Shown here: in pieces, positions 29,494 through 63,992 of the stretch
Numbering within the stretch: the first letter of the stretch is position 1
Layout of the letters: the number at the start of each line of letters is the position of its first letter
From: Magnetococcales bacterium
GTDB taxonomy: Bacteria > Pseudomonadota > Magnetococcia > Magnetococcales > UBA8363
Length of the DNA stretch: 64,000 nucleotides
Direction of reading: 5' to 3'
Assembly: GCA_015228815.1 (NCBI GenBank)
Contig: JADGCV010000010.1
Location: 46,218-110,217, forward strand
Notes under the pieces: model-generated
What the model saw: only the letters and a program-made list of their open reading frames with translations
What the model was told of the DNA's origin: nothing
The model's database searches: none
Translations under genes and position numbers: made by a program

Positions 29494-29614
29494 CGAAGCC
29501 TATTTCCAAGGGTTGCGGCCCGATCCAGTGCTGATGGTCTCGCAGTGGGCCGATCGGCAAACGTTCGCAACGGATTGTGTTCCATTTTTCATGGATGGGG
29601 TCATGAAATTTTGA
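29465..29614 (+). pseudogene. remnant of a second terL allele (first ~30 codons, then unrelated sequence and a stop)
   Basis: 'TAEQYDEAYFQGLRPDPVLMVSQWADRQ' versus the intact TerL 'TARLYNEAFSQGLRPDPLLLVSQWADRH' (20/27 identical by eye). It overlaps the terS 3' end, as a genuine terL start would. Confidence 0.65.
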
Positions 29615-29621
29615 GGAACTC

Positions 29622-29683
29622 GGCACTGCGTGGCGGGGCTGGGCACGGCATGGCAGGGCATGGCGCGGCAATGCAAGGCAAGG
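29622..29683. repeat. degenerate pentanucleotide array (GGCAN), about 12 units
   Basis: ggcac tgcgt ggcgg ggctg ggcac ggcat ggcag ggcat ggcgc ggcaa tgcaa ggcaa. Same family as 13017-13118. Confidence 0.9.
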
Positions 29684-29745
29684 ATTTTATCGAAAGTCAT
29701 TTTACCTGTTGGACAACCGGATCAACTCCCACTGGAAAAATCATC

Positions 29746-30339: not shown

Positions 30340-30425
30340 TGGCCACCCTCGACGAATTGCAGATCCGCCGGGACCGACTTCTGGAAACAGTTGCTGGAAT
30401 TGGTGGAGAAGGAAACAGACGATGA
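30339..30425 (+). pseudogene. possible remnant of a terS 3' end (28 codons)
   Basis: '...LLETVAGIGGEGNRR*' parallels the resident TerS C-terminus '...LQELAGMDGENHG'. The stop overlaps the terL ATG (ATGA), the normal terS/terL arrangement. Confidence 0.4.
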
Positions 30426-33205: not shown

Positions 33206-33409
33206 ATGGCTTTCACGCAAACAGAACTTGATGAACTCAAACAAGCCTACGCCTCCGGTGCCCTGCGCGTCGTCCACGAAGGCAAAACGGTCGAATACGG
33301 GTCGGAGGCCGATTTGCTGCGCCGTATCCGCATGGTTGAGGGCGAATTGAAAACCACGACTGGTCAGAATGCACCCAACGTCAGTTTTGCCAGTTTTTCC
33401 AGGGGCTGA
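33206..33409 (+). CDS. head-tail joining protein gpW family
   Basis: 'FTQTELDELKQAYASGALRVVHEGKTVEYGSEADLLRRIRMVEGEL' fits the gpW pattern and sits between terL and portal. ATG 33206 lies 8 nt after GGAG. Confidence 0.7.
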   Translation: MAFTQTELDELKQAYASGALRVVHEGKTVEYGSEADLLRRIRMVEGELKTTTGQNAPNVSFASFSRG

Positions 33410-44067: not shown

Positions 44068-47000
44068 ATGCCTACGGCTTCTCTTGAATTCGCCCTTTTC
44101 ATGGACACCGCCAACATTGCCCAGGGGATGGGGCGTGCCAGGAAGGAAGTGGCGGCGGGTTTGCGTGGCATGACCCAGGCAGCCAAGGATGAACGCAGGC
44201 GTATCGAAGATGCATTGGCCAACATGACCGCCTTCCGGGAACTCAAAAAAGGGGTTGCCGAGGCCAGGGCCGAATGGGTGAAGACTCACACGGAGGCCAC
44301 CCGGCTTGGGGCGGCATTGAACCAGGTTGGCCCACCCACAAAGGCGATGAACCGGGAGTTTGAAACAGCGAAAAAAGTCGCAGCCGAAGCCCAAGCCACT
44401 TTTGTCCAGCAGAATGTCACCCTCCATTCCCTGCGCACCGCGATGGCCGCTGCCGGGGTGTCTACGACCGGTTTGGCTGCGGCTCAGGCCAGACTTCGTG
44501 CCGAGTTGGTCGCCAATGAGGCCAGGTTTCAGGCACAGTCCCGCTCGATGTCGCGCATCCAGGATGCCAGAAACATCCTCGACCTTGGCTCCAGGGTCAA
44601 CACCGACCGGGATATTCTGCGTCTCCAGGCGGCCTACGAACGGTTGCGTGCCTCCGGGAATCTGACCGGCATCGAGTTGGCACGCGCCCATGTAAAAATG
44701 ACGGAAGGCATCATCGCCTTGCGCAACGGCACGGACGGTTGGGCGGCACGCCTTGCCCTGGTCCGGGAACAACTGGTGCAACTGGCCATTGTCGGTGCGG
44801 GGATTGGCTTGGCGGCCAGGGAGGCCATCGCCTTCGAATCCGCCATGGCCAATGTTCGCAAGGTGGTGGATTTCCAGACCCCCGGCGAATTCAAGGAGTT
44901 GACCGCCGATCTTAAACACCTGTCGCGGGAAATTCCGACCTCCCTGGACGGTCTGGCGAAAATCGCCGAGGCGGGCGGGCAGATGGGGATTGCCACCAGG
45001 GAGATTCGTGGATTTACGGAAATCGTGGCCAAGATGTCCACGGCGTTCAACATTTCCCCCAACGAAGCCGGGGAAGCGGTCGGTCGGCTGATGAACATTT
45101 TCAAGTTGACCGTGCCGGAGACCCAACGTTTGGGCGACGCCCTCAATCATCTGGGAAACAACACCAACGCGGTGGAACGGGACATCCTCAACGTCCTGAA
45201 CCGCACGGGTAGCATGGCCAAGGTGTTTGGACTCGCCAATACGGAGGCCGCTGCCCTTGGAACGGCATTTTTGGCCCTGGGGCGTCCCCCGGAGATTGCC
45301 GCCACGGGCATCAACGCCTTGATGCAGACCCTCCAGACCGCCCCCACCCGTGAGGGGGAGTTCAAGCAGGCGTTGCAGCGTATCGGTTTTTCCGCCGAGC
45401 AGTTGGCCGCCGACCTTGCCAAAGCGCCACAGCAAACCTTGATGCATTTTCTGGAAACATTGAAAAGCCTGGACGCACAGACCCAATCGGAAACTTTGGT
45501 GAGGCTTTTTGGCCGGGAATATGCCGACGACCTTGCCCTCCTGCTGACGGGTCTGGACACCTACAAAAAGACCCTCGATCTGGTGGCCAAAGAGACCCAC
45601 TATGCGGGGTCGATGCAGAAGGAGTTCAACGAACGGGTCAAGACCACCGCCTCCCAGATACAATTGGCAGGCAATGCCTTCTCCGAAGCGGGGGTGAATC
45701 TGGGGTCTGCGTTTTTGCCTGCCATTGTCGCGGCCTCTCAAGGGATGGCCGCGATGGCCCATGGCGTTGCGGTTCTGGCCGACCGTTTTCCCCTTTTATC
45801 CGCATCCGTCGTTGCAACCGTGGCAGCCCTGGCGGGATGGGGTGCATTGCGGTTGGCGTGGAGCGTCATGCGGGCCGGGGTCATGGCGTTGACTGTCGAA
45901 CTGGGTTCGCTTGCCGTGGCGGCTCGTGCGTTGGTGCTTTCGCCAGTAGGAGCCGTGTTGACCGCTGCGGGTGTCGCGGCCTATGCGTTGGCCAAAGCCA
46001 CCGCCTCCAGCGTCCTGCCGTTGCTGGAAAACGCCGCTGCCCTGGGCAAAAGTCGGGAGGCGACGGCGGAAAAAATCAAAGTTCTGGAGACGTTGAAAAA
46101 AACTCTGGAGACCACCAAGGAAGGGACCCGGGAACACCTCGCTGCGGAAGAAAAACTGGCGGCCATTCTGCCAAAAGCCAATCTTTCTCTGGACGAGCAG
46201 GGACGAATTCTGGCCAGGACAGGAACGGCTGCCAGCGTCAACACCGAAAAACTCAAAGAATATCTCGACATGCTCAAACGAGAGGATCGCCAAACCCTGG
46301 CGTTGCAACTGGAGACGCAATCGCGGGCCTTGAGTGTCGGAAAAAAGGAACTGGCCTCCTATACCGAAGGCTTGCGCCATTGGTATGGCATCGGTGTTGG
46401 CAAGGCACAAACCGAATCGCAAAAATTTTGGCTGTGGTTGAACAAACTGACCGGCACCTACGAGCAGAATATCACCAAGGGTGCGGAACTGCGCCGCCAA
46501 TTCGATGAATCAGGGACCGGGTTGAACTCTTTGTTGACCGAGGCGAAAAAGGCGGGGATGTCCATGGAGGATCTGGGTCGGGCCATGGATGGCATCCATG
46601 CCGATGCCGCGACCAAAGGACAGGTCCTGGCCCTTTTCCGGGACATGACGGGTGCAGCGACCGCCGCCGCCGGAAAGGTGGGCACACTTGCCGACACCTT
46701 CAAACAATTCTCCATCGCCCTTTCCGGACCAACCGCCGCCGCCAGGAAAGGATTCGTGGAGGCCATGGGTGCCGCCGAGCTCCAACTGGGCAAATACAAT
46801 GAAGCCCTGGGGCAGCGCCGGGCAAAACTGAAGGATGCGGTGGACAACGAAACCAACTCGTACAAAGCCATGGCATCCGCCGCCGCAGTCGCCTTCGAAA
46901 CGGTCACCCAGGTCCTGGACGAGCAATTCGACCATCGCCGTGACCGGTTGCAAGCCATGGCGGGCGAGGAAGCACAGGCGCATCAGGTCTCCCAACGGGC

Positions 47001-48615
47001 CATGCTGCATGCCACCACCGCCCTGGCCATCGAGGAAACCCACGCCAAACTGACCCAGGCCGACCGGTCCATGCGGCAGTCCCTGGAATTATCGAAAAAA
47101 GAGTTTCAAACCAAGATCGACCATGCCAGGCGGCTGGGACTGGATGCCGCCAGGGTGGATGAGGAACGTTTGCAATCCCAGCGTGGCATCCTGGAAAAAA
47201 CGGCGGTCGCCTATCGCCAAAACATCGACCGGATGATCCAGGAGGAAAGACGGTTGCGGGATGAAGCCAGGAGTCTCGCCGAGCAGCGCAAGGAGTTCAA
47301 CGCATCGGTGGCGGATCGCGTGGCCAACGTCCAGGAAAAGGGGATGGACCCCGTGCAGGTCGATGTCTCCCGGCAAAAACGTCTTGCCGTGGAGCAATCC
47401 CAGGCCGAGGCTGCGTTGCAGGCGGGGAATTTTGCAACCGCGCGCAAACATGCCGAGAAGATGATCGCCCTGGCCGAATCGACCTCCGATGCGGTGCGCC
47501 GGGGTGACCAGGTGGTGATGGACGCCAAGACGGCAACAGCCCGTGCCATTCAACAGGTTCAGGCCGCGGCACAAATCGAAAACCAGGCATTTCTCGCGGA
47601 AGAAAAGGCAAACGTGGAAGCTGCCGATGCCCTGCAAACATCGGCGGCGGCATCAACCGACACGTTGACCCGATTGCGGAATGTTTTGCAAGAGGTCGAT
47701 GCCGCTCTTGCCAAGGACCATACCCTCATCCTTGGAGCCGACACGAAAAAAATAGCGCAAATCGGCCCGGAAATCGATGCGATCCTGGAGAAGATCAATC
47801 CGGTGGTGCAAATCAAGGCCGAACTTCAAAGCAGTGCAACGGCGTTGGAAACCGTCATCGAGGATGTGCGCCAAGGGGCCACCGACCGGGCCAAAGCGAA
47901 GATCGATCACGCCGCCAACATTTTTGCATCATTCAAGACAGAATTTGCCGGTTGGCAGCCGGAGGTCAAGGCGACCTTCGATGCGGTTGCCGCACACAAC
48001 GCCATCGATGGCCTGGTGGCCAAGATCAAGGAGATTGACAACCAGGGAGCCAAGGTGACGTTCGAAGCGGAAACCAGTGCTGCCATGGGCAAGATCGATC
48101 ATTTGATTGCCCGGATCACGGACATTCCGTCCGAGAAAACAGTCACCATCAACTATATCGAACGCAAGAATGTTGCCCCGAACCAGGGGGTTGCGACGGG
48201 GTTTGCCCGTGGCGGCTTCCTGCCGGGTTGGGGCGACGAAGACAACGTCCCCGCCTGGTTGCAGCCAGGCGAATTCGTGTTGAACAAGCAGGCCGTGCGC
48301 AAATACGGGCTGGAAAAAATTCACGCCCTGAACCAAATGCGGCTGCCACAGTTCGCGCACGGAGGTTTGGTGCGGCAACTGCGATCCAAGATGCCACGGT
48401 TTGAAATGGGTGGCGTGGTGCGCAATCTGGTGATTCCGACCCTGCCACGGATGTCATTCGCGGGTGGCGGGGCGGTCACACCTCCGGTTGAAGGGGTGGT
48501 GCGACTTGAATTGATCACGAACAGCCACCGGGTTCCCCCATCCCTCACCGGCAGCCGGGCACAAGTTCGTGAGTGGGTTCAGGCATTGCAGGAGTCGCAG
48601 CGGGGGATGGCGTAA
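44068..48615 (+). CDS. tail tape measure protein
   Basis: 1515 aa, Ala/Leu/Glu-rich coiled-coil character. Core 'GLAKIAEAGGQMGIATREIRGFTEIVAKMSTAFNISPNEAGEAVGRLMNIF' is typical of TMPs. Position after G/GT. Confidence 0.9.
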   Translation: MPTASLEFALFMDTANIAQGMGRARKEVAAGLRGMTQAAKDERRRIEDALANMTAFRELKKGVAEARAEWVKTHTEATRLGAALNQVGPPTKAMNREFETAKKVAAEAQATFVQQNVTLHSLRTAMAAAGVSTTGLAAAQARLRAELVANEARFQAQSRSMSRIQDARNILDLGSRVNTDRDILRLQAAYERLRASGNLTGIELARAHVKMTEGIIALRNGTDGWAARLALVREQLVQLAIVGAGIGLAAREAIAFESAMANVRKVVDFQTPGEFKELTADLKHLSREIPTSLDGLAKIAEAGGQMGIATREIRGFTEIVAKMSTAFNISPNEAGEAVGRLMNIFKLTVPETQRLGDALNHLGNNTNAVERDILNVLNRTGSMAKVFGLANTEAAALGTAFLALGRPPEIAATGINALMQTLQTAPTREGEFKQALQRIGFSAEQLAADLAKAPQQTLMHFLETLKSLDAQTQSETLVRLFGREYADDLALLLTGLDTYKKTLDLVAKETHYAGSMQKEFNERVKTTASQIQLAGNAFSEAGVNLGSAFLPAIVAASQGMAAMAHGVAVLADRFPLLSASVVATVAALAGWGALRLAWSVMRAGVMALTVELGSLAVAARALVLSPVGAVLTAAGVAAYALAKATASSVLPLLENAAALGKSREATAEKIKVLETLKKTLETTKEGTREHLAAEEKLAAILPKANLSLDEQGRILARTGTAASVNTEKLKEYLDMLKREDRQTLALQLETQSRALSVGKKELASYTEGLRHWYGIGVGKAQTESQKFWLWLNKLTGTYEQNITKGAELRRQFDESGTGLNSLLTEAKKAGMSMEDLGRAMDGIHADAATKGQVLALFRDMTGAATAAAGKVGTLADTFKQFSIALSGPTAAARKGFVEAMGAAELQLGKYNEALGQRRAKLKDAVDNETNSYKAMASAAAVAFETVTQVLDEQFDHRRDRLQAMAGEEAQAHQVSQRAMLHATTALAIEETHAKLTQADRSMRQSLELSKKEFQTKIDHARRLGLDAARVDEERLQSQRGILEKTAVAYRQNIDRMIQEERRLRDEARSLAEQRKEFNASVADRVANVQEKGMDPVQVDVSRQKRLAVEQSQAEAALQAGNFATARKHAEKMIALAESTSDAVRRGDQVVMDAKTATARAIQQVQAAAQIENQAFLAEEKANVEAADALQTSAAASTDTLTRLRNVLQEVDAALAKDHTLILGADTKKIAQIGPEIDAILEKINPVVQIKAELQSSATALETVIEDVRQGATDRAKAKIDHAANIFASFKTEFAGWQPEVKATFDAVAAHNAIDGLVAKIKEIDNQGAKVTFEAETSAAMGKIDHLIARITDIPSEKTVTINYIERKNVAPNQGVATGFARGGFLPGWGDEDNVPAWLQPGEFVLNKQAVRKYGLEKIHALNQMRLPQFAHGGLVRQLRSKMPRFEMGGVVRNLVIPTLPRMSFAGGGAVTPPVEGVVRLELITNSHRVPPSLTGSRAQVREWVQALQESQRGMA

Positions 48616-52712: not shown

Positions 52713-53330
52713 ATGGCCATTTCATCCTCCTCCATTGCCGAAGTGGCCATCGCAACGGAAAGACCACCCGTCATGGCCGTTGCCGTGCAGGCATGGAGCG
52801 AGCAGCGGTATGGCAACCTGACAACGGGGACGCAAAACGCGCAGAGCTATGGCATGTTTGCCATCACCGCCGCCAGCGAACAGCGGTATGGCAACCTGAT
52901 GGCAGGGACGCAAAACGCGCAGAGCTATGGCATGTTTGCCATCACCGCCGCCAGCGAGCAGCGATACGACCACTGTTTTCTGCCGCGCATCGCCCACCTG
53001 CAACGGTACGGTGGCTTGATGTCCGAGGCCCAAGGGGCGTTCCCGTATGGCAACGGTCCGGTCCAGGGACAACACGACCAACCGATCACATTTACCCTGG
53101 ACATTGCTTTTTCACAGGGATGGACCCTTATGGCGGTCATGCGGGCACAATGTGCGCAGCCATGGACTTCCACCACGTCGGTCATGATGCAGGGTACCTT
53201 TCGGTATGACCTGTTGGCGCGCAATCCCGTCTTGGCCTCATCGAGGCAAATATGGAATCTGTCCGATGACCGGTCGGTCCGGCGTGCAGGCAACGTCATT
53301 CGTGCCTTTCATTTCGGAGAATTGATATGA
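52713..53330 (+). CDS. hypothetical tail protein with internal 26-aa tandem repeat
   Basis: 'EQRYGNL(T/M)(T/A)GTQNAQSYGMFAITAAS' occurs twice, followed by a partial third copy. Confidence 0.5.
   Translation: MAISSSSIAEVAIATERPPVMAVAVQAWSEQRYGNLTTGTQNAQSYGMFAITAASEQRYGNLMAGTQNAQSYGMFAITAASEQRYDHCFLPRIAHLQRYGGLMSEAQGAFPYGNGPVQGQHDQPITFTLDIAFSQGWTLMAVMRAQCAQPWTSTTSVMMQGTFRYDLLARNPVLASSRQIWNLSDDRSVRRAGNVIRAFHFGELI
52800..52967 (+). repeat. 78-bp in-frame tandem repeat, about 2.15 copies
   Basis: Units at 52800-52877 and 52878-52955, with a partial unit from 52956. A few substitutions between units. Confidence 0.85.
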
Positions 53331-54715
53331 TCGGCTCCATCATTTCCGCCACCCTGTCCCAGGCGGAAATGGATTTTGCCTGGAGTGGTACTTTTGAGGT
53401 GACAAACCCGGCATCGTTTCAGCGCATCCGCATCGATGATCCCATCGATCTGGAACTGGGTGGTGAAATCTTTAAGTTAATTGTTGACAACAAAACGCTG
53501 GAGCGGGATGGCGTTGGCATGCCACGGCTCACAGTCTCGGTAATCAGCCCCACGGTGCGTTTTACCACACCTCGCGCTACCCCATTGGACAGAGTTTGGG
53601 ACTCGCCCGTGTGGGCCAGGGACGCGGCAGAAGAGTCCATTGGCGAAGCCGTTGAATGGGACTTGGTGAACTGGCTGATCACAGGAGGGCGTCTGGCAGT
53701 GCACGAGGCCTTACCACTGGATGTCGTCCGCACCATTACCGCAGCCGTAGGTGGCTTGGTGGAGTCCCTGCCGGATGGGACGCTCCGGGTCCGGCATCGC
53801 TTTCCGGTGGCAGTGCCAGCCTGGGCGACGGCCAACGTGGATCATGTTTTGACCGATGAGTCCGACAACCTCTCTTGCCGCGAATCCCACATCCTGCGCA
53901 CCCGGGTCAACAAAGTGCTGGTCCGGGGCTATTTGCCATCTGGAACAGGGTTCTTATCCGTCGAGGTTGACTCGCGGCCTGACGGTTTGAACCACGGACG
54001 CACCAGCTTTTTTGCCGGAGACACGGCCCACCTGCTGGTGCATGCCGGTGATGATGTTGCCTTGGAAGACCCGCTTGTTTCCGCCGGGGTGATCCTGCCG
54101 GGGGGATGGCAGGTGATCAGCATGACGCAGGATCTGGTGTTCAACAGGGTGGCGACTGCCACATTGGACAAACCCGCCATCGGCATTGACTCGGTGATCT
54201 GGATCGGCAATGACCTGGGTGATCTCACCCTGGAGTCCGACAATCGCACGGTTTCTGTCCCGAATGCGGGTGTGGCCATCGCCAGAGTGACGTATCGTTC
54301 CATAGCGTGTGCCTGGGGCCTGTCCTCGCCATCGACCGTGGCCGGGTTGAGCGAATATCCGGTGCAGGTCCATTTCTCAGGTACGACTGGAGAAGTACTT
54401 GATGCAGGCGAGATTTTTTGCCAACGGGGTGATGGGGCGTTTCGTGGCACGGACATCTCCGACCCGCTTCTGACGACTGATGAAGCCAAGCGTTCCCGTG
54501 GTCGGGCGGAAATCGATGCGGGTGAATCCCTCCAGGAGGTCTCATTGACCTGCCTGCATCGGCCAGGATTTATGCCGGGGCAGCTCGTGGAAGTTCACGA
54601 TGCCCTGATGGGTCTCTCCTGGCGCGGCAAGATTACCTCGGTGAGCCATTTCGCCGCCGGGGCGAAACTGATCACTTCGTTGGAGTTGTTGCGCTATGTC
54701 CAGCCCTCTGTTTGA
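53327..54715 (+). CDS. hypothetical large distal tail protein
   Basis: 462-aa ORF. ATGA overlap with the upstream gene. Confidence 0.5.
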   Translation: MIGSIISATLSQAEMDFAWSGTFEVTNPASFQRIRIDDPIDLELGGEIFKLIVDNKTLERDGVGMPRLTVSVISPTVRFTTPRATPLDRVWDSPVWARDAAEESIGEAVEWDLVNWLITGGRLAVHEALPLDVVRTITAAVGGLVESLPDGTLRVRHRFPVAVPAWATANVDHVLTDESDNLSCRESHILRTRVNKVLVRGYLPSGTGFLSVEVDSRPDGLNHGRTSFFAGDTAHLLVHAGDDVALEDPLVSAGVILPGGWQVISMTQDLVFNRVATATLDKPAIGIDSVIWIGNDLGDLTLESDNRTVSVPNAGVAIARVTYRSIACAWGLSSPSTVAGLSEYPVQVHFSGTTGEVLDAGEIFCQRGDGAFRGTDISDPLLTTDEAKRSRGRAEIDAGESLQEVSLTCLHRPGFMPGQLVEVHDALMGLSWRGKITSVSHFAAGAKLITSLELLRYVQPSV

Positions 54716-54917: not shown

Positions 54918-55261
54918 TGTCGCCATCCCTGCCGCTCCCCTTGATCCGCATCCTTGCATCCGTCGGGAGTCCCTGCGTCTTGTTCAGGTTTACATCGCCG
55001 GACTCAAACCCAATGTGGCGTTCAGGTTGTCGCCGACAACGACCAGGTCCAGTCCGTCGGGAAATTTTCGCGCCAAACATGCCGGGAATATTTTCATCAG
55101 TGTGGCGAATTTGCTTGATTCTTGCGGGGGTGGGTAATCATAATGTGGATTCATGGAATGGAGGGTGACCGAAGGAATTTTTTCGCGAGTATCGGCCCTC
55201 TCTGACTGTTTCCCTACAACCGGCGCGCCAGTTCCCAACTTTACTATATTTTGGAGGTTTA

Positions 55262-55861
55262 ATGATTAAATTCTTAGGCAATTTGATCGTATTTGTAACT
55301 TTAGCGGCAATGTCCATGACAGGATGCGGAAATATTGTAGTACCAGGACAACATCTCACTGTCACTACAAACATCAAGCCCTGTCTTCAATCAAAATACG
55401 ACGGTGATTTTGGTTTAACACTTGGAGTTGAACAAATTAAGTGGCAAGACAAGCTGGTCAAGTTTGGCATTGATAATCTGCCAAAATCACAGAAAAGAAT
55501 GCTTGAGCAGCAATTTACATGGATTCCTCAGGACAAGTTCATAGTATTTGACGTTTACCTTGAAAACCGCGCTCAAAGTCCGGTGACATGGAACCCCAGG
55601 AATGCACCAGTGTTCGCTCTGCTTGATAAAAAGGGAACCATGTATAATGCATCAGGACAGAACGAAGGGAATATGGATGATATCTCAGCAAAGATAATGA
55701 TAGGTGCGACAGTAAACCCAGGACGGAAACTGAGAGGAACAGTCGTATTCGACGTTCCTAGAACGGATTCGTATGTTCTGCTCGTTAAACAAGGTAAATG
55801 GACAGGTGGATGGAGCGTTATTGGCGGCAATGAATTTATGAGATGCAATGTTGATAGTTAA
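55262..55861 (+). CDS. lipoprotein (DUF4352-like Ig-fold candidate)
   Basis: Signal peptide plus lipobox 'AAMSMTGC'. GGAGG lies upstream of the ATG. Confidence 0.7.
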   Translation: MIKFLGNLIVFVTLAAMSMTGCGNIVVPGQHLTVTTNIKPCLQSKYDGDFGLTLGVEQIKWQDKLVKFGIDNLPKSQKRMLEQQFTWIPQDKFIVFDVYLENRAQSPVTWNPRNAPVFALLDKKGTMYNASGQNEGNMDDISAKIMIGATVNPGRKLRGTVVFDVPRTDSYVLLVKQGKWTGGWSVIGGNEFMRCNVDS

Positions 55862-55932
55862 CACGTATAAGATCGTAGCCGTTCAGGCTCCCTCTCCCTC
55901 TGGGAGAGGGCCGGGGTGGGAGGATGTCATTT

Positions 55933-57084
55933 ATGCAGCTTAAAAGTTTGGTCAGCGTCTTTTCGACTTATTTCCTCCTGATTGGCTTGGCCATCTGCTT
56001 GGCTATGGTTCCGTCGGTAGTCGATGCAAGTGATTCTGACAAAAATGTTTACACGGTCCAGGTTTCTGCGAGTCGCTCGCGCGAGGACGCCATTGCCGAA
56101 ATGGAAAAACTGCGACGACAGGGTTTTACCCCTTTCATGCTGGATATTTATAATAGTAAGAACATCCTCTGGCATACTGTACAGATTGGCTATGATACCA
56201 ATTTACAGGTCGCTAAAAAACAAGCCCGGAAATTCAGGAAGAAAAGTGGGAAAAGTGCCGAAGTGTTAACGCTTCCCGCAACATCATTTGCTTACTTTAA
56301 GCTGCGTGCATCAGGAGAATCTTTTGAAGGGACTCAGAAATTATGGACAAATCAGCCATCACCAGCGATAGAAGAGCCTCCCAAAAATTTATCTGGTACC
56401 TATTCGCAGCAACCATCAGTGAGTTTGAAGGACATAAAACCAGACGTCTCTGATCCTGTGACCGATGGTAAGAAATTGAAGAGTATGGAACCAGACGTCC
56501 CAGATTCTTTAGACGTCGCGAGCCCTTTGACCAATGATAAGAAATGGTATGTTGTTGCCAGTGTTGGTGTATCTCATGTTGGTAAAAGTTCTGAAGATTT
56601 GGATCGCGACCTTTCCTCTCAAGGTTTTACCACCACTTCCTCAATCGATAGAACCAACCAAGGTTTAAAGTTGATTGGAGGGTACAAGTTTGCTCGGTAT
56701 TTAGGAGTTGAGGCTGGTTTTGTCCATTTCACGAAAGTCAACACCAAGATAGACGCATCTAATGCGGGCGGCATTGCCAATGCGGTCGTCAACCACGCTC
56801 CATTGACGATGAACGGTGCTGTAATGTCTGGGGTTGGCACTTGGCGAATTACCCCTGAAATCGCTTTACATGGAAAGGCCGGTGGATTTTTGTGGAACGG
56901 AAAGGTCAACGCCAACGCCCTGGGGGATAGCGTAACCCGCAAAGATGATGGCATCGATCCAATATTGGGTGTAGGTGCCGAGTTTAACATATCAGACCAG
57001 ACGTTGTTTCGTATCGAATGGGATCGGTATTTAACTTCCGATAAGATGGATCTCTTTTCTTCTGGAGTTGGAGTCCGGTTTTAA
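55933..57084 (+). CDS. SPOR-domain / C-terminal beta-barrel outer-membrane protein
   Basis: Signal peptide ending 'VVDA|SD'. 'YTVQVSASRSREDAIAEMEKLRRQGFTPFM...WHTVQIGYDTNLQVAKKQARKF' is SPOR-like. The C-terminal alternating beta strands end in '...GVGVRF' (aromatic terminus of OMP barrels). Confidence 0.7.
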   Translation: MQLKSLVSVFSTYFLLIGLAICLAMVPSVVDASDSDKNVYTVQVSASRSREDAIAEMEKLRRQGFTPFMLDIYNSKNILWHTVQIGYDTNLQVAKKQARKFRKKSGKSAEVLTLPATSFAYFKLRASGESFEGTQKLWTNQPSPAIEEPPKNLSGTYSQQPSVSLKDIKPDVSDPVTDGKKLKSMEPDVPDSLDVASPLTNDKKWYVVASVGVSHVGKSSEDLDRDLSSQGFTTTSSIDRTNQGLKLIGGYKFARYLGVEAGFVHFTKVNTKIDASNAGGIANAVVNHAPLTMNGAVMSGVGTWRITPEIALHGKAGGFLWNGKVNANALGDSVTRKDDGIDPILGVGAEFNISDQTLFRIEWDRYLTSDKMDLFSSGVGVRF

Positions 57085-60000
57085 TGCGTATACTTACAAA
57101 AAGACAATTAATACCTCCTTTTGGCTATCCATTGATTGTTGGTCTGGTATTGGTTCTGCTTGTTATTTCTGGGTGCTTTGAAGGGGGTAACGTTGATATT
57201 ATAACCAAACAAACATCTGATGACACTGATATCAGTTCCTCTGGCGGGGACGGTATTGGACCTGATGATAATATTTATATAGTTACTTTCGATGGTACAT
57301 CCTCAGACTCATCAGAATCTTCAGCAAATAATAACGCTTCACTGTTAGCAGACTTCGAAACAATAGATATACCAAAGAGAGGATTTGCAAATAATTATTC
57401 TTCATTTGATTTTCTATCAAAAACTGGTGCCAGATTTGATCGCCTTTTATCTTTTAGTACAAAATTTGCGTTCGCACAATCATTTGATAGAGTGAGATGG
57501 TTATCTCAACATGTGCAGATGGATTCTGAATTTTGTTATGAAGAAAAGAAAAAATATCCGGGAAATGCCTATTGCGGATTTGCTTCAGTCTTGATGGGAG
57601 CGGACTATCTTTTAAATGGGGAAACTACACCAAAGGCACCAGCGACCCTTGGTTATAGTGATGATACGTCAAGATGGATCGTAAATTCTGTAAAAGATGC
57701 ATTCAAAGATAAATACAGTCCATGTGGCGGCCTCCTTGGTATCCTTCCAGATGATGACATACCAACGTTTGCTAAAGAGCTAGGTGTGAGTAAACCAGAC
57801 TCACAATCAAAATCTGATGGAGCCACACCATTTGATAAAACAAGTCGTTCTAAAACTGCAGCAGAAGAATGGCTTAGAACCGCCTTGAATAATCGTCGGC
57901 CTGTAGTTGCAAGAATTCCTTACCAAGGTAATAAAATTCTTGGGCAAAAATCAAGAGAGAATTATTTCTCAGGAGGAACAAAAACAGTAGAAATGAAGGC
58001 AGACCCAAAGTCGGAGAAAGACCCAGAGTCGGTTGTTCGTCATTGGATATTGATCGCTGAAATAAATGACGATACGGTTTTGACCTATGATCCGGATCCG
58101 CATGCCAAGAATGAAGAAGCTGGCATAAGGAGGTATACCAAGAGTTCATTTTTTGAACAGCTAGTAGACAATAGGAATAAATCTAAAGGTCGGATGTTTA
58201 TGTATCAATTATGTGCGGATTGTGAATCTGGTACAGAGGCATTTGCAGCACCAGCCCAAGGAGTAACATTAAGCCTTAATCATTTGCACACAGCAGGCAA
58301 CAGCACTCCCATTGTGTCACCTCTTGTTCCAAATTGCCAGTTTTCTTCACAAAACATGCCTCCTGGACTGTCATTGGATACAGAAGGGCGGATTAATGGT
58401 ACGGCAACACAAACAGGATCATCTTCACCGACAATTATAATGCAATGTAACAATGATAATGTTAATCGTGTAGCGACAAAAAATATTAGTATGACAATCG
58501 TTTCAGATAATTTGAATACCACACCAGGGACGGATACAATAGCCAGCATTGATCTTATTACCCTATCAAAGCTCAAAAATGGTAAAGTTGGAAATATATA
58601 TTCATTGCCACTTTCCACATCCAGAGCATCTGATTCTTTATCTTTCAGCGTTATTGACGGAAAATTACCACCCGGCCTAAACCTGACTGGCGGTACTATT
58701 GTGGGAAAACCAACTCTAAGTGGTACCTACAGTTTCGATATACGTGCAACAATATCAACAGCTTCAGCTACGAAAAACTTTACAATAGTTGTCGATCCCC
58801 AAACGGATGCTCTAGTAATTGCGCCAACGCTAAATAAAATACAACCTGATACCGTTTTAGGCAAAAACGGACAGCAGCTAATGAAGTTAGTCGGTTCTGG
58901 ATTTAGCGATGGCTCGCGTGTTCGCCTTGTGGACATTACCAACAATGTAACCTATGAAAAAAGTCCGGTATCCGTAAAGGATGCCGAAATTGAGATTAGA
59001 GCCAACTTCTCTACAGACAAAGCCACCTGGACGGCTACTGTAGTAGGGCCAACAGGATTGGAGTCTGCACCTGTTTCATTTTCAGTGTTGGCTCCAAGTA
59101 CAGAAGCAAGTCGTCCCATCGTGTGGCCAAGAGCTTGGACGCAGCCACTTGATGACGACCTCAGAGTGACTGCAGAGTATGGAGCCTTTGGTAAAGATTG
59201 TTCGAATGCCGATCTAACGGCAGTGTATACATACTATCTCGATAGTGGTCGACTGGAACACCTCGGCTTGGACTTATCTGCTGCTGCTGGAAAAGTTGTA
59301 AAGAGCATTGCACCGGGTAAGGTTATCTATAGTGGAAAGATGTGGACTGAAAAATGGGCTGACGTTATTCTGGTAGAACATTGGACTACCAGTGCGGAAA
59401 CTTTCACAGCGGTATACGGCCATCTTAATTCAAGTGTGAAAAAAGGCGATGAAGTCAAGGCAGGAGACCAGCTTGGTACAGTTTATAATCTGCCGTCTCC
59501 GTATGGATCTCATCTTCACTTTGGCGTTGCAAAAGACAGGCAAACCTCTGTTCCAGGATTTTCCAGTGATAACAATTCAACAAATGGCGCATGCACACAG
59601 CATCCTGGTGTAACTATTAATCCAGAAACTTTCTTGCAAGGGAGATCACCGGCAGATGTTGCTCCTACAAATGCAAAGTTGGCTATTCCAATCAACTTGA
59701 CGCCTGGCAGTGAGACGAGTCCAGGAAGCACCGTAGGGAGTGGTCAAGTCACCTTAAGTTGGTCCTCAGTAACTGGGGCAACGTATTACGAAGTCATAGT
59801 TAAAGATACTGATACAGGCTCTTCACAAAGCACGACTGTAAAGACTACATCTTATAGTTCCAACCTTGTCCCTGGAAAAAAATATCAATGGTATGTTTCT
59901 GCATGTAACGGTAACGGCTGCTCCAAACACACCTTAGGTCAATATTTCCAAACTCCAGGAGATAGCATACCAGATACGCCGACCATCGACATGACCAACT

Positions 60001-61448
60001 CTGTATTTGGAAGTATTACCGGTCCAGGTACAATGATGAGTAGTACGTCGGTAAGCCTGTCATGGAGTACGATGAGTCGGGCGACACGCTACGAACTAGG
60101 TGTTCGGGATGTCACTACCAATAACCTCGTTGTAGATACCTCTATTGTTGGAACATCCTATACTGCAAATCTGGATCCAGAAAAACAATACAAGTGGAAT
60201 GTCGCTGCCTGTAATAGTTCCGGATGTTCAAAATATACAACTCCAATCTATTTTCAAACACCAAAACTCGCTGCCTCATTTTCACCGCCTGTTGTAACCT
60301 TGACCGATGGCCAGATCGGTTCCAATCCTCCTGTCCCTGTAGCAGGTACCTTGACTGTCAATAGTGGTTCATCTGGTACATCAGGGACATTGAGTGCCAA
60401 CAATCCTGACGGTGGTTCATTGACCTATAGTATCGTGACCAATGGGTCGAAGGGGGTGGCAACGATCACTAATTCTGCCACCGGAGCCTACACCTATGCG
60501 CCAAACGCTGGTAGCAGTGGGACGGATACATTCACCTTCAAAGTTAACAATGGCAAAGTGGATTCCAATGTTGCGACGATCACGGTCACGATCACTCCGG
60601 ACAGCGCGGTGGTGCCGACCATCACTTCATTGAGCCCGACCAGTATGACCGCCTCTGGGACGCAACAGACCCTGACAATCAACGGCAGCAATTTTGTTGC
60701 TGGTAACCTGGTTCAGTTCAAGTGGGGCGTAGGATCAGAAGCCAATATTTGGAAAAATTCGACTTCGACACCGAGTGTGACGTCCAACCAAATCAGCCTG
60801 GGTATATATCCTGGCACCGTCTCCGATACGATTCATGTTCGTGTATGTACCAACAGCGATGCAATCAATTGTTCTTCACAACAATCTATGACAGTAACGT
60901 CTGCAACTTCATTTTCACCGCCTGTTGTAACCTTGACCGATGGTCAGATCGGTTCCAAAGGTATCGTTGCCAAGACCGGTCAAACCACATCTTATGCAGC
61001 GGGGGACGATGGTGCCCTGCAAAAGGGCGTTGCTTGGCCCAACCCGCGCTTCACCGATAATAGCAACGGCACGGTCACGGACAATCTGACAGGTTTGATT
61101 TGGCTCAAGAGTGCCAATTGCTTTAACCCTCAGGATTGGACCTCTGCCCTGGCCACGGCCAAAGGGTTGGCCAATGGGCAGTGCGATCTGGCGGATGGCT
61201 CCGTTGCCGGTGATTGGCGACTACCCAACATCAACGAACTGGAAAGTTTGGTCGACTATAGTCATCATTGGCTCTATCAGGAGGCCGGGTATCCGTTTTC
61301 GGGCGTCCGGCTCAGCCACTATTGGTCGGGCTCCACGCACGCCCACTACACGTCCGGCGCCTGGTACGTGCACCTCGGCTACGGCATCGTGTACCACAAC
61401 GACAAGGCGAACAGCAACCTTGTCTGGCCTGTGCGAGGCGGAGAATGA
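57084..61448 (+). CDS. 1454-aa multidomain lipoprotein, DGR target 1 (papain-like peptidase, Ig/IPT/FN3-like repeats, M23 peptidase, C-terminal DUF1566 domain carrying VR1)
   Basis: Lipobox 'LLVISGC'. Candidate Cys/His pair 'GNAYCGFASVLMG' / 'VRHWILIAEINDD'. 'PPGLSLD'/'PPGLNLTGGTIVGKPT' Ig-type repeats. M23 motifs 'HLGLDLSAAAG', 'AVYGHL', 'GSHLHFGV'. Two FN3-like 'LSWS...Y(Y/E)...Y.W.V.ACN..GCS' modules. DUF1566 'DWRLPNINELESL'. Confidence 0.85.
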   Translation: MRILTKRQLIPPFGYPLIVGLVLVLLVISGCFEGGNVDIITKQTSDDTDISSSGGDGIGPDDNIYIVTFDGTSSDSSESSANNNASLLADFETIDIPKRGFANNYSSFDFLSKTGARFDRLLSFSTKFAFAQSFDRVRWLSQHVQMDSEFCYEEKKKYPGNAYCGFASVLMGADYLLNGETTPKAPATLGYSDDTSRWIVNSVKDAFKDKYSPCGGLLGILPDDDIPTFAKELGVSKPDSQSKSDGATPFDKTSRSKTAAEEWLRTALNNRRPVVARIPYQGNKILGQKSRENYFSGGTKTVEMKADPKSEKDPESVVRHWILIAEINDDTVLTYDPDPHAKNEEAGIRRYTKSSFFEQLVDNRNKSKGRMFMYQLCADCESGTEAFAAPAQGVTLSLNHLHTAGNSTPIVSPLVPNCQFSSQNMPPGLSLDTEGRINGTATQTGSSSPTIIMQCNNDNVNRVATKNISMTIVSDNLNTTPGTDTIASIDLITLSKLKNGKVGNIYSLPLSTSRASDSLSFSVIDGKLPPGLNLTGGTIVGKPTLSGTYSFDIRATISTASATKNFTIVVDPQTDALVIAPTLNKIQPDTVLGKNGQQLMKLVGSGFSDGSRVRLVDITNNVTYEKSPVSVKDAEIEIRANFSTDKATWTATVVGPTGLESAPVSFSVLAPSTEASRPIVWPRAWTQPLDDDLRVTAEYGAFGKDCSNADLTAVYTYYLDSGRLEHLGLDLSAAAGKVVKSIAPGKVIYSGKMWTEKWADVILVEHWTTSAETFTAVYGHLNSSVKKGDEVKAGDQLGTVYNLPSPYGSHLHFGVAKDRQTSVPGFSSDNNSTNGACTQHPGVTINPETFLQGRSPADVAPTNAKLAIPINLTPGSETSPGSTVGSGQVTLSWSSVTGATYYEVIVKDTDTGSSQSTTVKTTSYSSNLVPGKKYQWYVSACNGNGCSKHTLGQYFQTPGDSIPDTPTIDMTNSVFGSITGPGTMMSSTSVSLSWSTMSRATRYELGVRDVTTNNLVVDTSIVGTSYTANLDPEKQYKWNVAACNSSGCSKYTTPIYFQTPKLAASFSPPVVTLTDGQIGSNPPVPVAGTLTVNSGSSGTSGTLSANNPDGGSLTYSIVTNGSKGVATITNSATGAYTYAPNAGSSGTDTFTFKVNNGKVDSNVATITVTITPDSAVVPTITSLSPTSMTASGTQQTLTINGSNFVAGNLVQFKWGVGSEANIWKNSTSTPSVTSNQISLGIYPGTVSDTIHVRVCTNSDAINCSSQQSMTVTSATSFSPPVVTLTDGQIGSKGIVAKTGQTTSYAAGDDGALQKGVAWPNPRFTDNSNGTVTDNLTGLIWLKSANCFNPQDWTSALATAKGLANGQCDLADGSVAGDWRLPNINELESLVDYSHHWLYQEAGYPFSGVRLSHYWSGSTHAHYTSGAWYVHLGYGIVYHNDKANSNLVWPVRGGE
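61287..61442 (+). repeat. DGR variable region VR1 (with invariant flanks)
   Basis: Gap-free alignment with 63752-63907. The first 22 and last 21 nt are identical. About 34 mismatches (hand count) in the central 114 nt, mostly in codon positions 1-2 of NNC codons. Confidence 0.85.
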
Positions 61449-63025
61449 TGGTCCCCTCTTCCCTGTCATCCATGGATCATCCCCTGTTCACTGCGGAGAA
61501 CCTTTATTGGGCCTGGCGAAAATGTAGGCGTCGAAAAAGCCATATCCGGAGCGCTACCGATTTTGAGTACAATCTGGAAGAGAACCTGTTCGCCTTGCGT
61601 GATGAGTTGCGGCGGCGACGTTACTGTCCCGCTCCCTCGCGGGCCTTTCTGGTGGCAAAGCCCAAACGTCGGGAAATCTTTGCAGCTCAATTTCGTGACC
61701 GCGTGGTCCATCATCTTCTCGTGGATCACCTGGAACCGGGTTGGGAGCGCCGTTTTATTCATGATTCCTTTGCCTGCCGTAAAGGCAAGGGGACCCATGC
61801 GGCGGTGGAACGACTGCGTTCCATGACGCGCCAAGTGACTGCCAACGGTTCCCGCCCGGCGTGGTATCTGCAGTTGGACATCAAAGGCTTCTTCATCTCC
61901 ATCGATCGGCGGATCCTTTTTTCAAGGTTGGTGGCGCACGAAATAGATCCCGTCGTCCTCGATCTGATCCGGCTTCTGGTTTTCCACGACCCCACCCGGA
62001 ATTGCCGCTTGTGCGGTCAGCCCATGTCCGCGTTTCAGGCGTTACCGGCCCATAAGACCCTGTTCAAGGCTGCCTCGGAGTGTGGGCTCCCCATCGGCAA
62101 TCTGACCAGCCAGTTTTTCGCTAACGTCTATTTGGATACACTGGATCAGTTTTGTAAGCATCACCTGAAAATCCGGCATTATGTCCGCTATTGTGACGAT
62201 TTCGTGATTCTGGCCAACCATGCGGACGAGTTGCGGGTCTGGGAGCGGCAGATTGAAACATTTCTCTGGGCTCACCTCCGATTGCGTTTGAATGAGAAAA
62301 GGAAACTGCGCCCCGTTTCCGACGGTATCGATTTTCTGGGATACATCGTGCGCCCGGATTATCTTCTGACACGCAAGCGTGTGGCGGGCGCTCTTCGGGA
62401 AAGACTGTCCGGAGCTCAAGCCATTCTGGTAGCTGAAGGTATGACGCTGGCTGAGGGGGAATCCCGTTTTTTCCCTTGGAACCGGACTCTTATGAACCGA
62501 GTCAGACAATGGCTGGTCTCCTTTCGCGACCATACCGAACGGGCCTCCAGTCACCGTCTTTGGGGTGACATGATACGCCGTTTCCACTGGTTGGATGAAT
62601 ATTTCATCTGGCGCAACGGCATCCCAAACTTTCGTTACCCGCCACCCTTCCATTCTCAGAGTTTTAATCAGCAGAAACGTTGGTTCCTCAGTCTGTTTCC
62701 GGATCACGTGGTCATGATCCGATTGGGCTCCTACTGGGAGATCGCTGCGTCCCGCGCCGACCTGTTACCTATTCCCAGTTGGCACGGTCGGCGTTTTACT
62801 GAACGCAGTTTCCAGGCGATCAACCGCATCCTTCTGACTCGATGGGGGCGTGTGGTCTGGATTGATGAGACCGGACGGAGGATCACTCCCATTGCGGAAC
62901 GAGTATTGACAGGACACTGGCCGGGGAATTTTTCGGGTTGTCCACCAAAACCAGATTCTCCAATGGTTGTTGAAGAGCGGCATGGAGGTGAAAAGCCTCC
63001 TTTTCAGCAGGCGGAACAAGGGTGA
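61445..63025 (+). CDS. DGR-type reverse transcriptase with MutS-domain-I-like C-terminal extension (alternative start ATG 61472)
   Basis: 'FRDRVVHHLLVDHL', 'SFACRKGKGTHAAV', 'GLPIGNLTSQFFANVYL' (62093-62113) and 'YCDD' (62189-62200). The ATGATG start overlaps the target-1 stop. Confidence 0.9.
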   Translation: MMVPSSLSSMDHPLFTAENLYWAWRKCRRRKSHIRSATDFEYNLEENLFALRDELRRRRYCPAPSRAFLVAKPKRREIFAAQFRDRVVHHLLVDHLEPGWERRFIHDSFACRKGKGTHAAVERLRSMTRQVTANGSRPAWYLQLDIKGFFISIDRRILFSRLVAHEIDPVVLDLIRLLVFHDPTRNCRLCGQPMSAFQALPAHKTLFKAASECGLPIGNLTSQFFANVYLDTLDQFCKHHLKIRHYVRYCDDFVILANHADELRVWERQIETFLWAHLRLRLNEKRKLRPVSDGIDFLGYIVRPDYLLTRKRVAGALRERLSGAQAILVAEGMTLAEGESRFFPWNRTLMNRVRQWLVSFRDHTERASSHRLWGDMIRRFHWLDEYFIWRNGIPNFRYPPPFHSQSFNQQKRWFLSLFPDHVVMIRLGSYWEIAASRADLLPIPSWHGRRFTERSFQAINRILLTRWGRVVWIDETGRRITPIAERVLTGHWPGNFSGCPPKPDSPMVVEERHGGEKPPFQQAEQG

Positions 63026-63316: not shown

Positions 63317-63913
63317 GTGAAACGGATGCGCATGTTTTTGGATAACGGGGTAGCAGAGTGGATACTGGCCATATCTTTATTTTTTGTATTTTCCTCAGTG
63401 CATGCTGCGGGAGCGCCGCCCGCCCCGGTTCCCAAGACGGGCCAGACCACTTTGTATGGCGCTGGCGACGACGGCGCGTTGCAAAAGGGTTTGGCATGGG
63501 CCACCCCCCGCTTTTCGGACATGGGAGATGGGACGGTACGGGATACCCTGACCAGTCTGATCTGGATGAAAAATGCCAATTGTTGGGGTGACATGGCTTG
63601 GTTATCCGCCCTGGCCAAGGTTGCTGGTCTTAACGGTGGCACGGAAACCTGTTCCGGCTATACCGGGAACCAAACCGACTGGCGTCTGCCGAGTATCAAG
63701 GAACTTAGAAGCCTGATCGACTATGGTCATTTCAAACCGGCGTTGTCGGCTGGGTATCCGTTTTCGGGCGTCCAGACCAACTACTATTGGTCTGGATCCA
63801 CGGTCGCGAGTGGCACGTCCGGCGCATGGGTCGTGAGCCTCGACAACGGCTACGTGAACGACAGCGACAAGACGTACAGTTTCTATGTCTGGCCTGTGCG
63901 AGGCGGACCATAG
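63317..63913 (+). CDS. secreted DUF1566-domain protein, DGR target 2 (carries VR2)
   Basis: GTG 63317 follows GGGAGG. Signal peptide '...FVFSSVHA|AG'. 'KTGQTTLYGAGDDGALQKG', 'DWRLPSIKELRSL'. Confidence 0.85.
   Translation: MKRMRMFLDNGVAEWILAISLFFVFSSVHAAGAPPAPVPKTGQTTLYGAGDDGALQKGLAWATPRFSDMGDGTVRDTLTSLIWMKNANCWGDMAWLSALAKVAGLNGGTETCSGYTGNQTDWRLPSIKELRSLIDYGHFKPALSAGYPFSGVQTNYYWSGSTVASGTSGAWVVSLDNGYVNDSDKTYSFYVWPVRGGP
63752..63907 (+). repeat. DGR variable region VR2 (with invariant flanks)
   Basis: See VR1. Same length and same invariant ends: GGGTATCCGTTTTCGGGCGTCC ... GTCTGGCCTGTGCGAGGCGGA. Confidence 0.85.
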
Positions 63914-63951
63914 GGCCTTGGATACTTTGGGTGCTTTGCGAGGGGGGAGTG

Positions 63952-63977
63952 CAGAGGGGGGAGGCTTCCCCCCTCTG
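63952..63977 (+). other. GC-rich hairpin downstream of VR2 (10-11 bp stem, GGCT tetraloop)
   Basis: CAGAGGGGGG-AGGCTT-CCCCCCTCTG read directly. It lies 45 nt after the last invariant VR2 base. Confidence 0.8.
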
Positions 63978-63992
63978 CCCGCCGCAGGCGGG
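63978..63992 (+). other. second short GC hairpin (terminator-like)
   Basis: CCCGCC-GCA-GGCGGG followed by ATTCTTGT. The window ends at 64000. Confidence 0.5.

Follow-up and report, generated by a model that had tools for sequence, protein, structure and literature searches.

What does a diversity-generating retroelement (DGR) rewrite when its target protein carries enzymes as well as a binding tip? Such targets are usually regarded as proteins that bind, be they phage receptor-binding proteins, adhesins or the sensors of intracellular conflict systems. The stretch of DNA analysed here, 64,000 nucleotides (nt) of a Magnetococcales bacterium (assembly GCA_015228815.1, contig JADGCV010000010.1; hereafter the window), raises this question through a giant gene that adjoins a DGR-type reverse transcriptase (RT). 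We show that the product of this gene has the predicted make-up of an exported lipoprotein in which two hydrolase domains with complete sets of catalytic residues are joined, through a stalk of β-sandwich domains, to a lectin tip of the DGR type (Table 1). A sequence-only reading of the window had proposed such a giant lipoprotein with two peptidase-type domains and a DUF1566 tip, and the open reading frame (ORF), the lipobox and the Pfam domains agree with it. An exported, DGR-rewritable lectin tied to intact hydrolases would extend DGR biology, in that a change of binding would become a change of attack or degradation.

The N-terminus of the giant protein (...LLVISG/C31) matches the lipobox pattern [LVI][ASTVI][GAS]C, and the homologs L003, L004, L006 and P0022 have a lipobox of the same type followed by a poly-Gly run. 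Further along the chain, an M23 metallopeptidase domain scores 64.4 to 67.8 bits against a PF01551 cut-off of 28.7. All five catalytic and zinc-binding residues are present, in the motifs HLGLD (H726, D730), YGHL (H780) and HLHF (H810, H812), and these align residue for residue with those of the active Vibrio enzyme TagE (PDB 5j1l; E = 3.6e-6). HLGLDL, GHL and HLHFGV, the strings on which the sequence-only reading had based a clear M23 domain, are thus all in place and aligned with an active enzyme, and the domain is therefore not degenerate. Its nearest NCBIfam matches are the peptidoglycan metallopeptidases Pgp6, MepM and Pgp3, all under their full-length cut-offs. The five residues are also conserved in the homologs P0003, P0019 and L003.

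Nearer the N-terminus lies a second putative peptidase, with Q142 (WxSQ), C164 (YCGF), H320 (HWV) and D336/D338 (YDPDP) in that order. Every family member that covers these columns has the identical residue there, and the family motifs follow in the same order (WxSQ; YCG(F/P/H); H(W/F)(V/I); Asp in (D/S)DP or DSD). Compared with Pfam, the best match of the window module is the C39-like family DUF3335 at a non-significant E of 0.14; the orthologous module of L004 exceeds the cut-off of Peptidase_C39_2 (PF13529; 30.2 bits vs 24). An AlphaFold model computed from a seven-sequence alignment reached a predicted local distance difference test score (pLDDT) of 80.3 and a predicted template modelling score (pTM) of 0.84, and was used in place of an AlphaFold2 (AF2) model from a two-sequence alignment that was not usable (pLDDT 44). 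Every significant Foldseek match of the seven-sequence model in the PDB has the papain fold (2bu3, 8z4n, 3bcn, 6v9z, 3erv; E 1e-4 to 6e-2), with moderate template modelling (TM) scores of about 0.4–0.53. The matched proteins include the phytochelatin-synthase-like Alr0975, CtaG, the pseudomurein endoisopeptidase PeiR, ervatamin and papain, and also the C39 domain of PCAT1, IdeS and a C39-like protein of Bacillus anthracis. A family profile searched against the PDB gave sub-threshold matches only, to the C39 domain of ComA (over the His..DPDP segment; E = 0.8) and to the DUF4150-domain protein 9l5u (E = 0.13). The modelled module most resembles the C39, C83, C71, C1 and C66-type families, not NlpC/P60 or CHAP, and as the TM-scores are moderate we call it a previously unclassified, predicted clan-CA cysteine-peptidase module.

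The candidate Cys in GNAYCGFASV and His in VRHWILI that the sequence-only reading had assigned to a papain-like module correspond to C164 and H320, and alignment, AF2 and Foldseek agree with that assignment. Degenerate motifs or folds that searches fail to support would have spoken against the two peptidases; what we found is an intact M23 domain and a supported papain-like fold. The same reading had described both domains as of peptidoglycan-hydrolase type. This holds for M23, on the strength of its NCBIfam and PDB relatives, and does not hold for the papain-fold module, which is C39/C83/C71/C1-like. Its chain of Ig/IPT/FN3-like spacers is recovered by Pfam as two He_PIG domains, two fn3 domains, a Big_9 domain and a TIG domain; a further IPT-like domain ahead of M23, for which a Pfam scan gave no match, resembles the TIG domain further along and is kept in P0003, P0019 and L004.

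Is the lectin tip a DGR target? The giant gene has some of the features of one: the ATG of a DGR-clade RT (at 61445) overlaps its TGA, and a variable region (VR) lies at its 3′ end within a domain of C-type-lectin fold. The giant protein belongs to the same DUF1566 class of DGR variable proteins as LdtA of Legionella. Relatives of the RT occur at loci with pairs of a VR and a template repeat (TR). We scanned species-representative genomes with an RT profile, which gave at least 584 relatives, and kept the best 80 loci, a biased sample; most of the 80 have Lcl_C ORFs nearby. The four relatives examined (L001, L014, L032 and L089) share one order: a large Lcl_C target with VR1, avd (where checked), TR, RT and a small target with VR2.

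In the window, the 3′ ends of the two Lcl_C genes contain the copies of a 160-nt repeat with 78% identity, which we call the VR1-like copy and VR2; the two lectin domains are 59% identical 5′ of it. Inside the repeat, 28 mismatches fall at codon positions 1–2 and 7 at position 3, as against 66 and 63 in the Lcl_C coding sequence upstream (Fisher P = 0.002). Both copies have NNC at 15 of the 25 variable codons, and one copy has A at 23 of 35 mismatch positions in the repeat, compared with 53 of 129 upstream. The pair looks like two VRs written from one AAC-rich TR. The sequence-only reading had spoken of a diversified DUF1566 tip; a VR-like pair with the signature of diversification supports it in part, and the window contains no TR.

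A repeat search and sensitive blastn found no third copy of the repeat in the 64 kb, and tblastn with the Avd proteins of L014 and L032 found nothing in the window that resembles avd. Neither of the two copies is itself the TR, because the presumed template has A at only 12 of 39 mismatches if the VR1-like copy is cast in that role and at only 14 of 39 if VR2 is. The 3′ end of the VR1-like copy is instructive. In Magnetococcus sp. YQC-9 (L014), the TR ends GGAGAATGGTGATTCCGTCTTCCCTGT and is followed by the RT; VR2 of the window and both VRs of L014 continue through GGAC and CTTGGAT into a GC hairpin. The VR1-like copy ends GGAGAATGATGGTCCCCTCTTCCCTGT (GGAG and the RT junction) and runs into the RT, with neither the VR-type GGAC nor the CTTGGAT segment nor a GC hairpin, and folding of the sequence 3′ of it revealed no hairpin (fold z-score +1.8). 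This copy thus consists of the 5′ flank and diversified body of VR1 joined to the 3′ end of a TR, with the switch inside 21 identical bases, GTCTGGCCTGTGCGAGGCGGA. We considered a crossover further upstream and rejected it, as non-A mismatches continue to the last variable codon. About 1 kb, comprising the VR1 flank, avd and the body of the TR, is missing from the assembled locus. This would be explained most simply if VR1 and TR, which are direct repeats, had recombined and that segment had been lost; alternatively, an assembler that merged VR1 with the TR would have produced the same sequence. As assembled, the DGR cannot diversify anything: both the template and avd are missing, and the giant gene does not offer a VR-type acceptor end. 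According to Guo et al. in 2011, the initiation of mutagenic homing (IMH) sequence, that is the VR-type 3′ end, and a downstream hairpin or cruciform are reportedly needed for retrohoming. Either a tip that was once diversified has become frozen, or the contig collapsed where VR1 meets TR. The junction is accordingly of interest either as a clear case of DGR death by recombination of its own repeats or as a warning on assembler collapse of DGR loci.

How widespread is the link between these peptidases and a DGR lectin? We refer to the enzymatic part of the giant protein as the payload. Its family, defined by the papain-fold module followed by He_PIG and IPT-like domains, is very rare: an exhaustive profile search of 1.84 billion clustered proteins gave only seven representatives, and a metagenome scan added four partial members. 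A word-index protein search with the N-terminal module gave no match for the single sequence and one fragment for the profile. Over its papain, He_PIG, IPT-like, M23 and FN3 domains, P0019 (1,275 aa) runs collinear with the window protein at 41% identity; it is fused to a C-terminal Lcl_C domain of a different subtype. P0003 (907 aa; locus L001) has the same modules through M23 at 41–42% identity, and 30 nt downstream of it comes a separate Lcl_C gene, followed by avd, TR, RT and a small Lcl_C target; the TR shows clean A-to-N changes relative to two VRs, and the neighbouring genes are chromosomal. L004 shares the TIG module that precedes Lcl_C in the window protein, as far as the end of its contig. 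P0020 and P0021 have neither M23 nor Lcl_C, and there is no DGR at their loci.

An independent instance comes from L032 (Nitrospinota), where NHL repeats and Lcl_C share a lipoprotein with an M23 domain that has intact motifs but is unrelated to that of the giant protein (24% identity). The DGR of this locus is complete, with avd and RT in place and VR/TR differences in the variable stretch essentially all at TR adenines. The link between peptidase and DGR lectin therefore recurs: fused in P0019, adjoining in P0003/L001 and in an unrelated lineage in L032, where the idea can be tested in a still active system. Large Lcl_C proteins near related RTs carry other enzymes as well. A Pfam scan of 20 such ORFs, drawn from the best 80 loci and not a census, found mostly Ig, cadherin or PKD domains, together with caspase C14 and PKD in L089 (275–2626), LCAT-like α/β hydrolases in L025 (11254–15537) and L026 (11443–14949), NACHT in L020 and a protein kinase in L044. 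The large target of L014 (5123–8782) has VWA7_N, which we take to be Het-C-like, with aBig_2 and dockerin on the same tip. Among L089, L025, L026 and L014, the TR/VR status was checked for L014 and L089. The scan replaced a narrow census of the 80 loci with an M23 hidden Markov model, which returned one ORF, missed L032 and was disregarded.

Two features of the homologs stand apart. In L001 (13760–13990), the first Lcl_C target undergoes two changes of frame inside VR1, and an in-frame TAG cuts the called gene short; this target is either decaying or an assembly of mixed VR variants. At the N-termini of P0003 (L001 10124–10392) and P0021, a signal peptide and tandem dockerin-like repeats (DxDGNG...TDGLLxxR) replace the lipobox, which points to a scaffold, in place of lipid, as the means of attachment.

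Base composition separates the giant gene into two units. A low-GC island contains a DUF4352 gene, a SPOR/OmpA-barrel gene that ends on the A of the giant gene's ATG, and the first ~1,290 codons of the giant gene itself. From about nt 60,900, GC rises to 0.55–0.60 and GC content at third codon positions (GC3) to 0.6–0.65, as in the RT, the small target and the neighbouring prophage. A 50-nt linker repeat brackets the Big_9–TIG segment, and homology to the large target of L014 starts at VAKTGQTTSY, about nt 60,966, right after linker copy 2. This copy marks the enzyme/DGR junction, because the Magnetococcus homology begins and GC rises there. We conclude that the giant gene is a (recent) compositional graft, joined at about nt 60,960, of a low-GC enzyme payload (aa 1 to about 1290) onto a high-GC DGR chassis, namely Lcl_C with its VR, the RT and the small Lcl_C target, of the type found in Magnetococcus sp. 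YQC-9. The composition suggests that the low-GC island is a block from a different genome. The linker pair itself looks like a recombination scar of domain shuffling.

A contig that is chimeric at the GC shift or at the 50-nt repeat, with peptidase and lectin in truth separate polypeptides, would also show base composition changing abruptly near nt 60,900, with a direct repeat right where the two parts meet, and the VR1/TR join is a second suspicious one on the same contig. We consider such an artefact very unlikely. The reading frame is open across the junction, the fusion recurs independently in P0019, a homolog that comes from a different sample, the corresponding parts of L001 are adjoining genes 30 nt apart, and the TIG module preceding Lcl_C is shared by L004.

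The surroundings bring in a further possibility. A siphovirus-like prophage or phage module ends shortly before the low-GC island, at roughly 54.7 kb. Phage DGRs usually follow tail genes, and tail-associated lysins often carry M23. Together with the phage-like GC content of the RT and the small target, this would fit a prophage-encoded virion lysin or receptor-binding protein diversified by a phage DGR. That account is barely credible: both targets have signals for secretion, the giant protein a lipobox and its small companion a Sec signal; at the homologous loci L001, L009 and L011 the neighbours are housekeeping genes of the chromosome, with no phage genes among them; and two envelope genes separate the tail module from the giant gene.

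If the two-unit architecture is accepted, what does the protein do? We favour the reading, whose chances we regard as evenly balanced, that it is a two-unit lipoprotein whose lectin tip targets two hydrolases and whose DGR cassette was deleted in the cell or collapsed in assembly. The protein would be lipid-anchored at the cell envelope, with about seven β-sandwich domains as a spacer between the anchor and the lectin tip; the latter would bind a ligand, and both hydrolase domains would act on the bound material. By the logic of lysostaphin-type bacteriolysins, the targeting domain would here be of a DGR-rewritable kind. On this analogy, the most likely substrate of M23 would be peptide cross-links in the walls of other cells. 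Retargetable hydrolysis is a plausible function of the giant protein by analogy, and the idea of a retargetable attack seems reasonable, being supported by recurrence in other lineages.

Several points weigh against this reading. The family is known from sequences alone. For a lipid-anchored enzyme to reach foreign peptidoglycan, it would have to be exposed at the surface or set free, and the wall of the target would have to be open to it. The papain-fold module of the window protein is without a significant Pfam match, and its best Foldseek matches have E of about 1e-4 and TM-scores of 0.43–0.53. The loci of P0020 and P0021 are without a DGR, and the core function of the payload therefore needs no variable tip. 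As to the cassette, a TR could lie beyond nt 64,000, outside the window, and true deletion and assembly collapse fit the assembled sequence alike.

The protein could instead be an adhesin, in which the variable lectin tip is the only part that acts outward, as in Legionella LdtA, and the peptidases serve the protein itself: the C39-like module would cleave a GG motif, for maturation or release from the lipid anchor, and M23 would locally open the producer's own peptidoglycan, or tether the protein to it, during export or anchoring. Some 70 residues ahead of the catalytic Cys, seven members (the window protein, P0003, P0019, P0018/L003, P0020, P0021 and L004) indeed keep a GG-x4-PDDN motif. This may serve for processing at a double glycine, Gly-Gly being the site after which C39 peptidases cleave, or may be a strand of a propeptide. 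Envelope genes lie directly upstream (SPOR and OmpA-barrel here, a CsgG-like lipoprotein with SH3 in L004), although these partner genes differ between loci. Most large Lcl_C targets near related RTs, carrying only Ig, cadherin and PKD domains, look like adhesins. Scaffold or activator M23 domains (EnvC, NlpD, DipM) have lost zinc ligands, whereas all five M23 residues are retained in four homologs, and the independent linkage of two M23 lineages to DGR lectins is hard to square with a housekeeping aid to export. We therefore hold the adhesin account to be unlikely.

A third account keeps the hydrolases facing outward but takes the bacterial wall away from them: the tip would capture variable glycans or proteins, on detritus, S-layers, pili or phage particles for example, and the peptidases would degrade these for nutrition or protection. 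The papain-fold module fits this in being nearest to C83, C39, C1 and C66-type proteins and not to the cell-wall families NlpC/P60 or CHAP, and the caspase C14 of L089 and the LCAT-like hydrolases of L025 and L026 point to a general theme of an enzyme plus a variable binder. The nearest characterised relatives of the M23 domain, however, are peptidoglycan endopeptidases, and we judge this account to be decidedly unlikely.

Returning to a tip that targets hydrolases, we can also ask whether the window represents a wider class. DGR lectin cassettes might be portable, rewritable targeting modules grafted onto different exported hydrolases, with the window as one such graft that was later inactivated by VR × TR recombination; this extension is doubtful, and we offer it as such. 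The grafted payloads would include M23 (acquired at least twice independently), the papain-fold peptidase, caspase C14, LCAT-like lipases and the VWA7_N-domain protein. If true, bacteria would possess a class of weapons for lysis or degradation that can be aimed anew, doing with enzymes what phages do when they retarget receptor binding. A protein of this kind would be a natural template for lysins of programmable specificity.

The remainder of the window is described for completeness. Three tandem tyrosine recombinase genes (329, 306 and 404 aa; 21443–24560, minus strand) form a 'recombinase in trio' arrangement, upstream of which lie ParB-like, helicase, DUF3987 and methylase genes; on account of these genes we regard the window as mostly mobile DNA. 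Two arrays of a repeat with a 5-nt period (GGCAC/GGCAT/GGCAA...), at 13014–13118 and 29609–29693, are 16.5 kb apart and 60–72% alike; candidate roles are those of iterons or of sites for recombination or packaging. The ORF at 52713–53330 contains a tandem 78-nt duplication (94% identical, 52797–52952), and the collagen-like tail fibre gene has an 85-nt repeat (92% identical, 255 nt apart, 41461–41800). The window contains no tRNA genes, and a scan of it for promoters and terminators gave results at chance level.

Table 1. Features of the giant lipoprotein gene, its DGR and the neighbouring DNA (positions within the window).
Feature	Position (nt)	Strand	Evidence and remarks
Giant lipoprotein ORF, 1454 aa	57084..61448	+	Uninterrupted frame; identical protein P0001 encoded on a 117,497-bp contig
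Signal peptide, lipobox ISG/C, Cys31 (MRILTKRQ...GLVLVLLVISG/C)	57084..57176	+	Read from sequence
GG-x4-PDDN-(L/I)-x-I-x-x-F motif, aa 53-70	57240..57293	+	Between lipobox and papain-like module
Papain-fold (clan CA, C39-like) Cys-peptidase module (predicted), aa ~134-389	57483..58250	+	Alignment, ortholog Pfam match, AF2 model
Two He_PIG Ig-like domains	58284..58800	+	Pfam E 3e-14, 2 stretches
First IPT/TIG-like domain (putative), aa ~575-670	58806..59093	+	Sequence resemblance
Peptidase M23, aa 726-821	59259..59546	+	Pfam PF01551 E 1e-17
Two FN3 domains	59730..60266	+	Pfam fn3 E 1e-10, 2 stretches
Linker repeat copy 1, encodes SFSPPVVTLTDGQIGS	60276..60325	+	50-nt direct repeat, 98% identical to copy 2
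Big_9 Ig domain	60324..60590	+	Pfam E 2.6e-11
TIG domain, aa ~1178-1256	60615..60851	+	Pfam E 1.2e-5, 25.7 bits vs cut-off 20.9
Linker repeat copy 2, encodes SFSPPVVTLTDGQIGS	60909..60958	+	Abuts start of DGR-type lectin
Lcl_C/DUF1566, aa 1329-1451	61068..61436	+	Pfam E 2.4e-25; C-type-lectin fold per literature
VR1-like segment at 3′ end of giant gene	61283..61442	+	Diversified body; last 21 nt GTCTGGCCTGTGCGAGGCGGA identical to VR2
TR-type 3′ end and RT junction GGAGAATGATGGTCCCCTCTTCCCTGT	61440..61475	+	Aligned to L014 TR-RT junction
DGR-type RT	61445..63025	+	Pfam RVT_1 E 8e-20; IGNLTSQ and YCDD motifs
Small secreted Lcl_C protein, 198 aa, second DGR target	63317..63913	+	Pfam Lcl_C E 1e-28
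VR2, VR-type end GGAC	63748..63907	+	Repeat partner of VR1-like segment
12-bp GC hairpin 3′ of VR2	63951..63978	+	Fold z-score -2.6; homologous to hairpins after L014 VR1 and VR2
Low-GC island	55200-60900		GC 0.35-0.50, GC3 0.21-0.41 vs 0.6-0.7 around
DUF4352 lipoprotein gene, first in low-GC island	55262..55861	+	Pfam E 9e-12; GC 0.41, GC3 0.39
SPOR and C-terminal OmpA-like 8-stranded barrel gene	55924..57084	+	Pfam SPOR E 6.5e-10, OmpA_membrane E 1e-16
Siphovirus-like prophage or phage module	28000-54715		Ends about 0.5 kb before low-GC island
Prophage large terminase gene	30320-32332
Prophage portal gene	33409-34866
Prophage fused head-protease/major head gene	34891-36960
Prophage collagen-repeat tail fibre gene	40699-42183
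Prophage tape measure gene	44068-48615
Prophage tail protein gene	53327-54715

How does this protein compare with known systems? LdtA of Legionella pneumophila and TvpA of Treponema denticola share with it the lipoprotein signal, a C-terminal VR domain of lectin fold and a cellular context. They are binders only, whereas the window protein adds two peptidase domains and about 1,300 residues and its cassette is without a TR and avd. DUF1566-class DGR targets form category 'd' of Wu et al. 2018 (PMC5758913), with adhesion or Ig domains as their reported extensions; the same study has protease-bearing targets in the FGE-sulfatase type, in classes b4 and b5. Dore et al. 2024 describe STAND or vWA-MoxR conflict systems with trypsin, caspase or S8 peptidases (PMC10907252). 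The authors of both studies read the STAND, NACHT and MoxR-vWA DGR systems as defence or signalling (PMC5758913, PMC10907252). The conflict-system targets share with the window protein a DGR-variable lectin-fold sensor that is tied to a peptidase by fusion or gene neighbourhood. They differ in that their C-type lectin (CLec) domain is of the FGE-sulfatase type and that, on our own reading of their architectures, they are cytoplasmic; the window protein is exported and DUF1566-type, with M23 and a papain fold. DGR targets with protease-type domains in conflict systems are also said to have been described by Vallota-Eastman et al. in 2020.

A full-text search of the open-access literature returned no DGR paired with M23 in this way, and the large DGR surveys consulted mention no peptidase payloads of this kind, with proteases only in target classes other than DUF1566. 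The term 'M23' in the supplement of Roux et al. 2021 is a generic label of phage protein clusters and not a DGR target. Both the search and the surveys accord with the claim, made in the sequence-only reading, that the combination had not been described; two peptidases with a DGR lectin are apparently a rare and undescribed arrangement.

For the chassis, the closest comparison is with Magnetococcus sp. YQC-9. The RTs are 51% and the Lcl_C tips 55% identical, the TR–RT junctions are nearly identical, the VR/TR scaffold is homologous, and the two loci have the same order of large target, RT and small target and a GC hairpin after VRs. L014 differs in keeping avd and a TR between VR1 and RT, and in the payload of its large target (VWA7_N, aBig_2 and dockerin). 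For the papain-fold module, the comparison is with C39 and C39-like peptidases (PF13529, PF11814), which have the same fold and Q...C...H...D order; PCAT1 and 3erv are among its fold matches, and the His-x15-DPDP segment of the family profile aligns weakly, below threshold, with the ComA peptidase domain. It differs from C39 in its length of about 250 aa, its large insertions, the absence of an ABC transporter and, for the window sequence, scores under all Pfam cut-offs, and its best fold matches are C83 phytochelatin-synthase-like proteins, not C39.

Lysostaphin, zoocin A and enterolysin A consist of an M23 (LytM) catalytic domain and a C-terminal targeting domain that decides which cells are attacked. 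The window protein shares with these bacteriolysins the M23 residues HxxxD, H and HxH and a separate C-terminal binding domain, an analogy in architecture. It differs from them in that its targeting domain is a DGR-type Lcl_C instead of SH3b/TRD, and in being a lipid-anchored protein of 1,454 aa with a second, cysteine-peptidase module.

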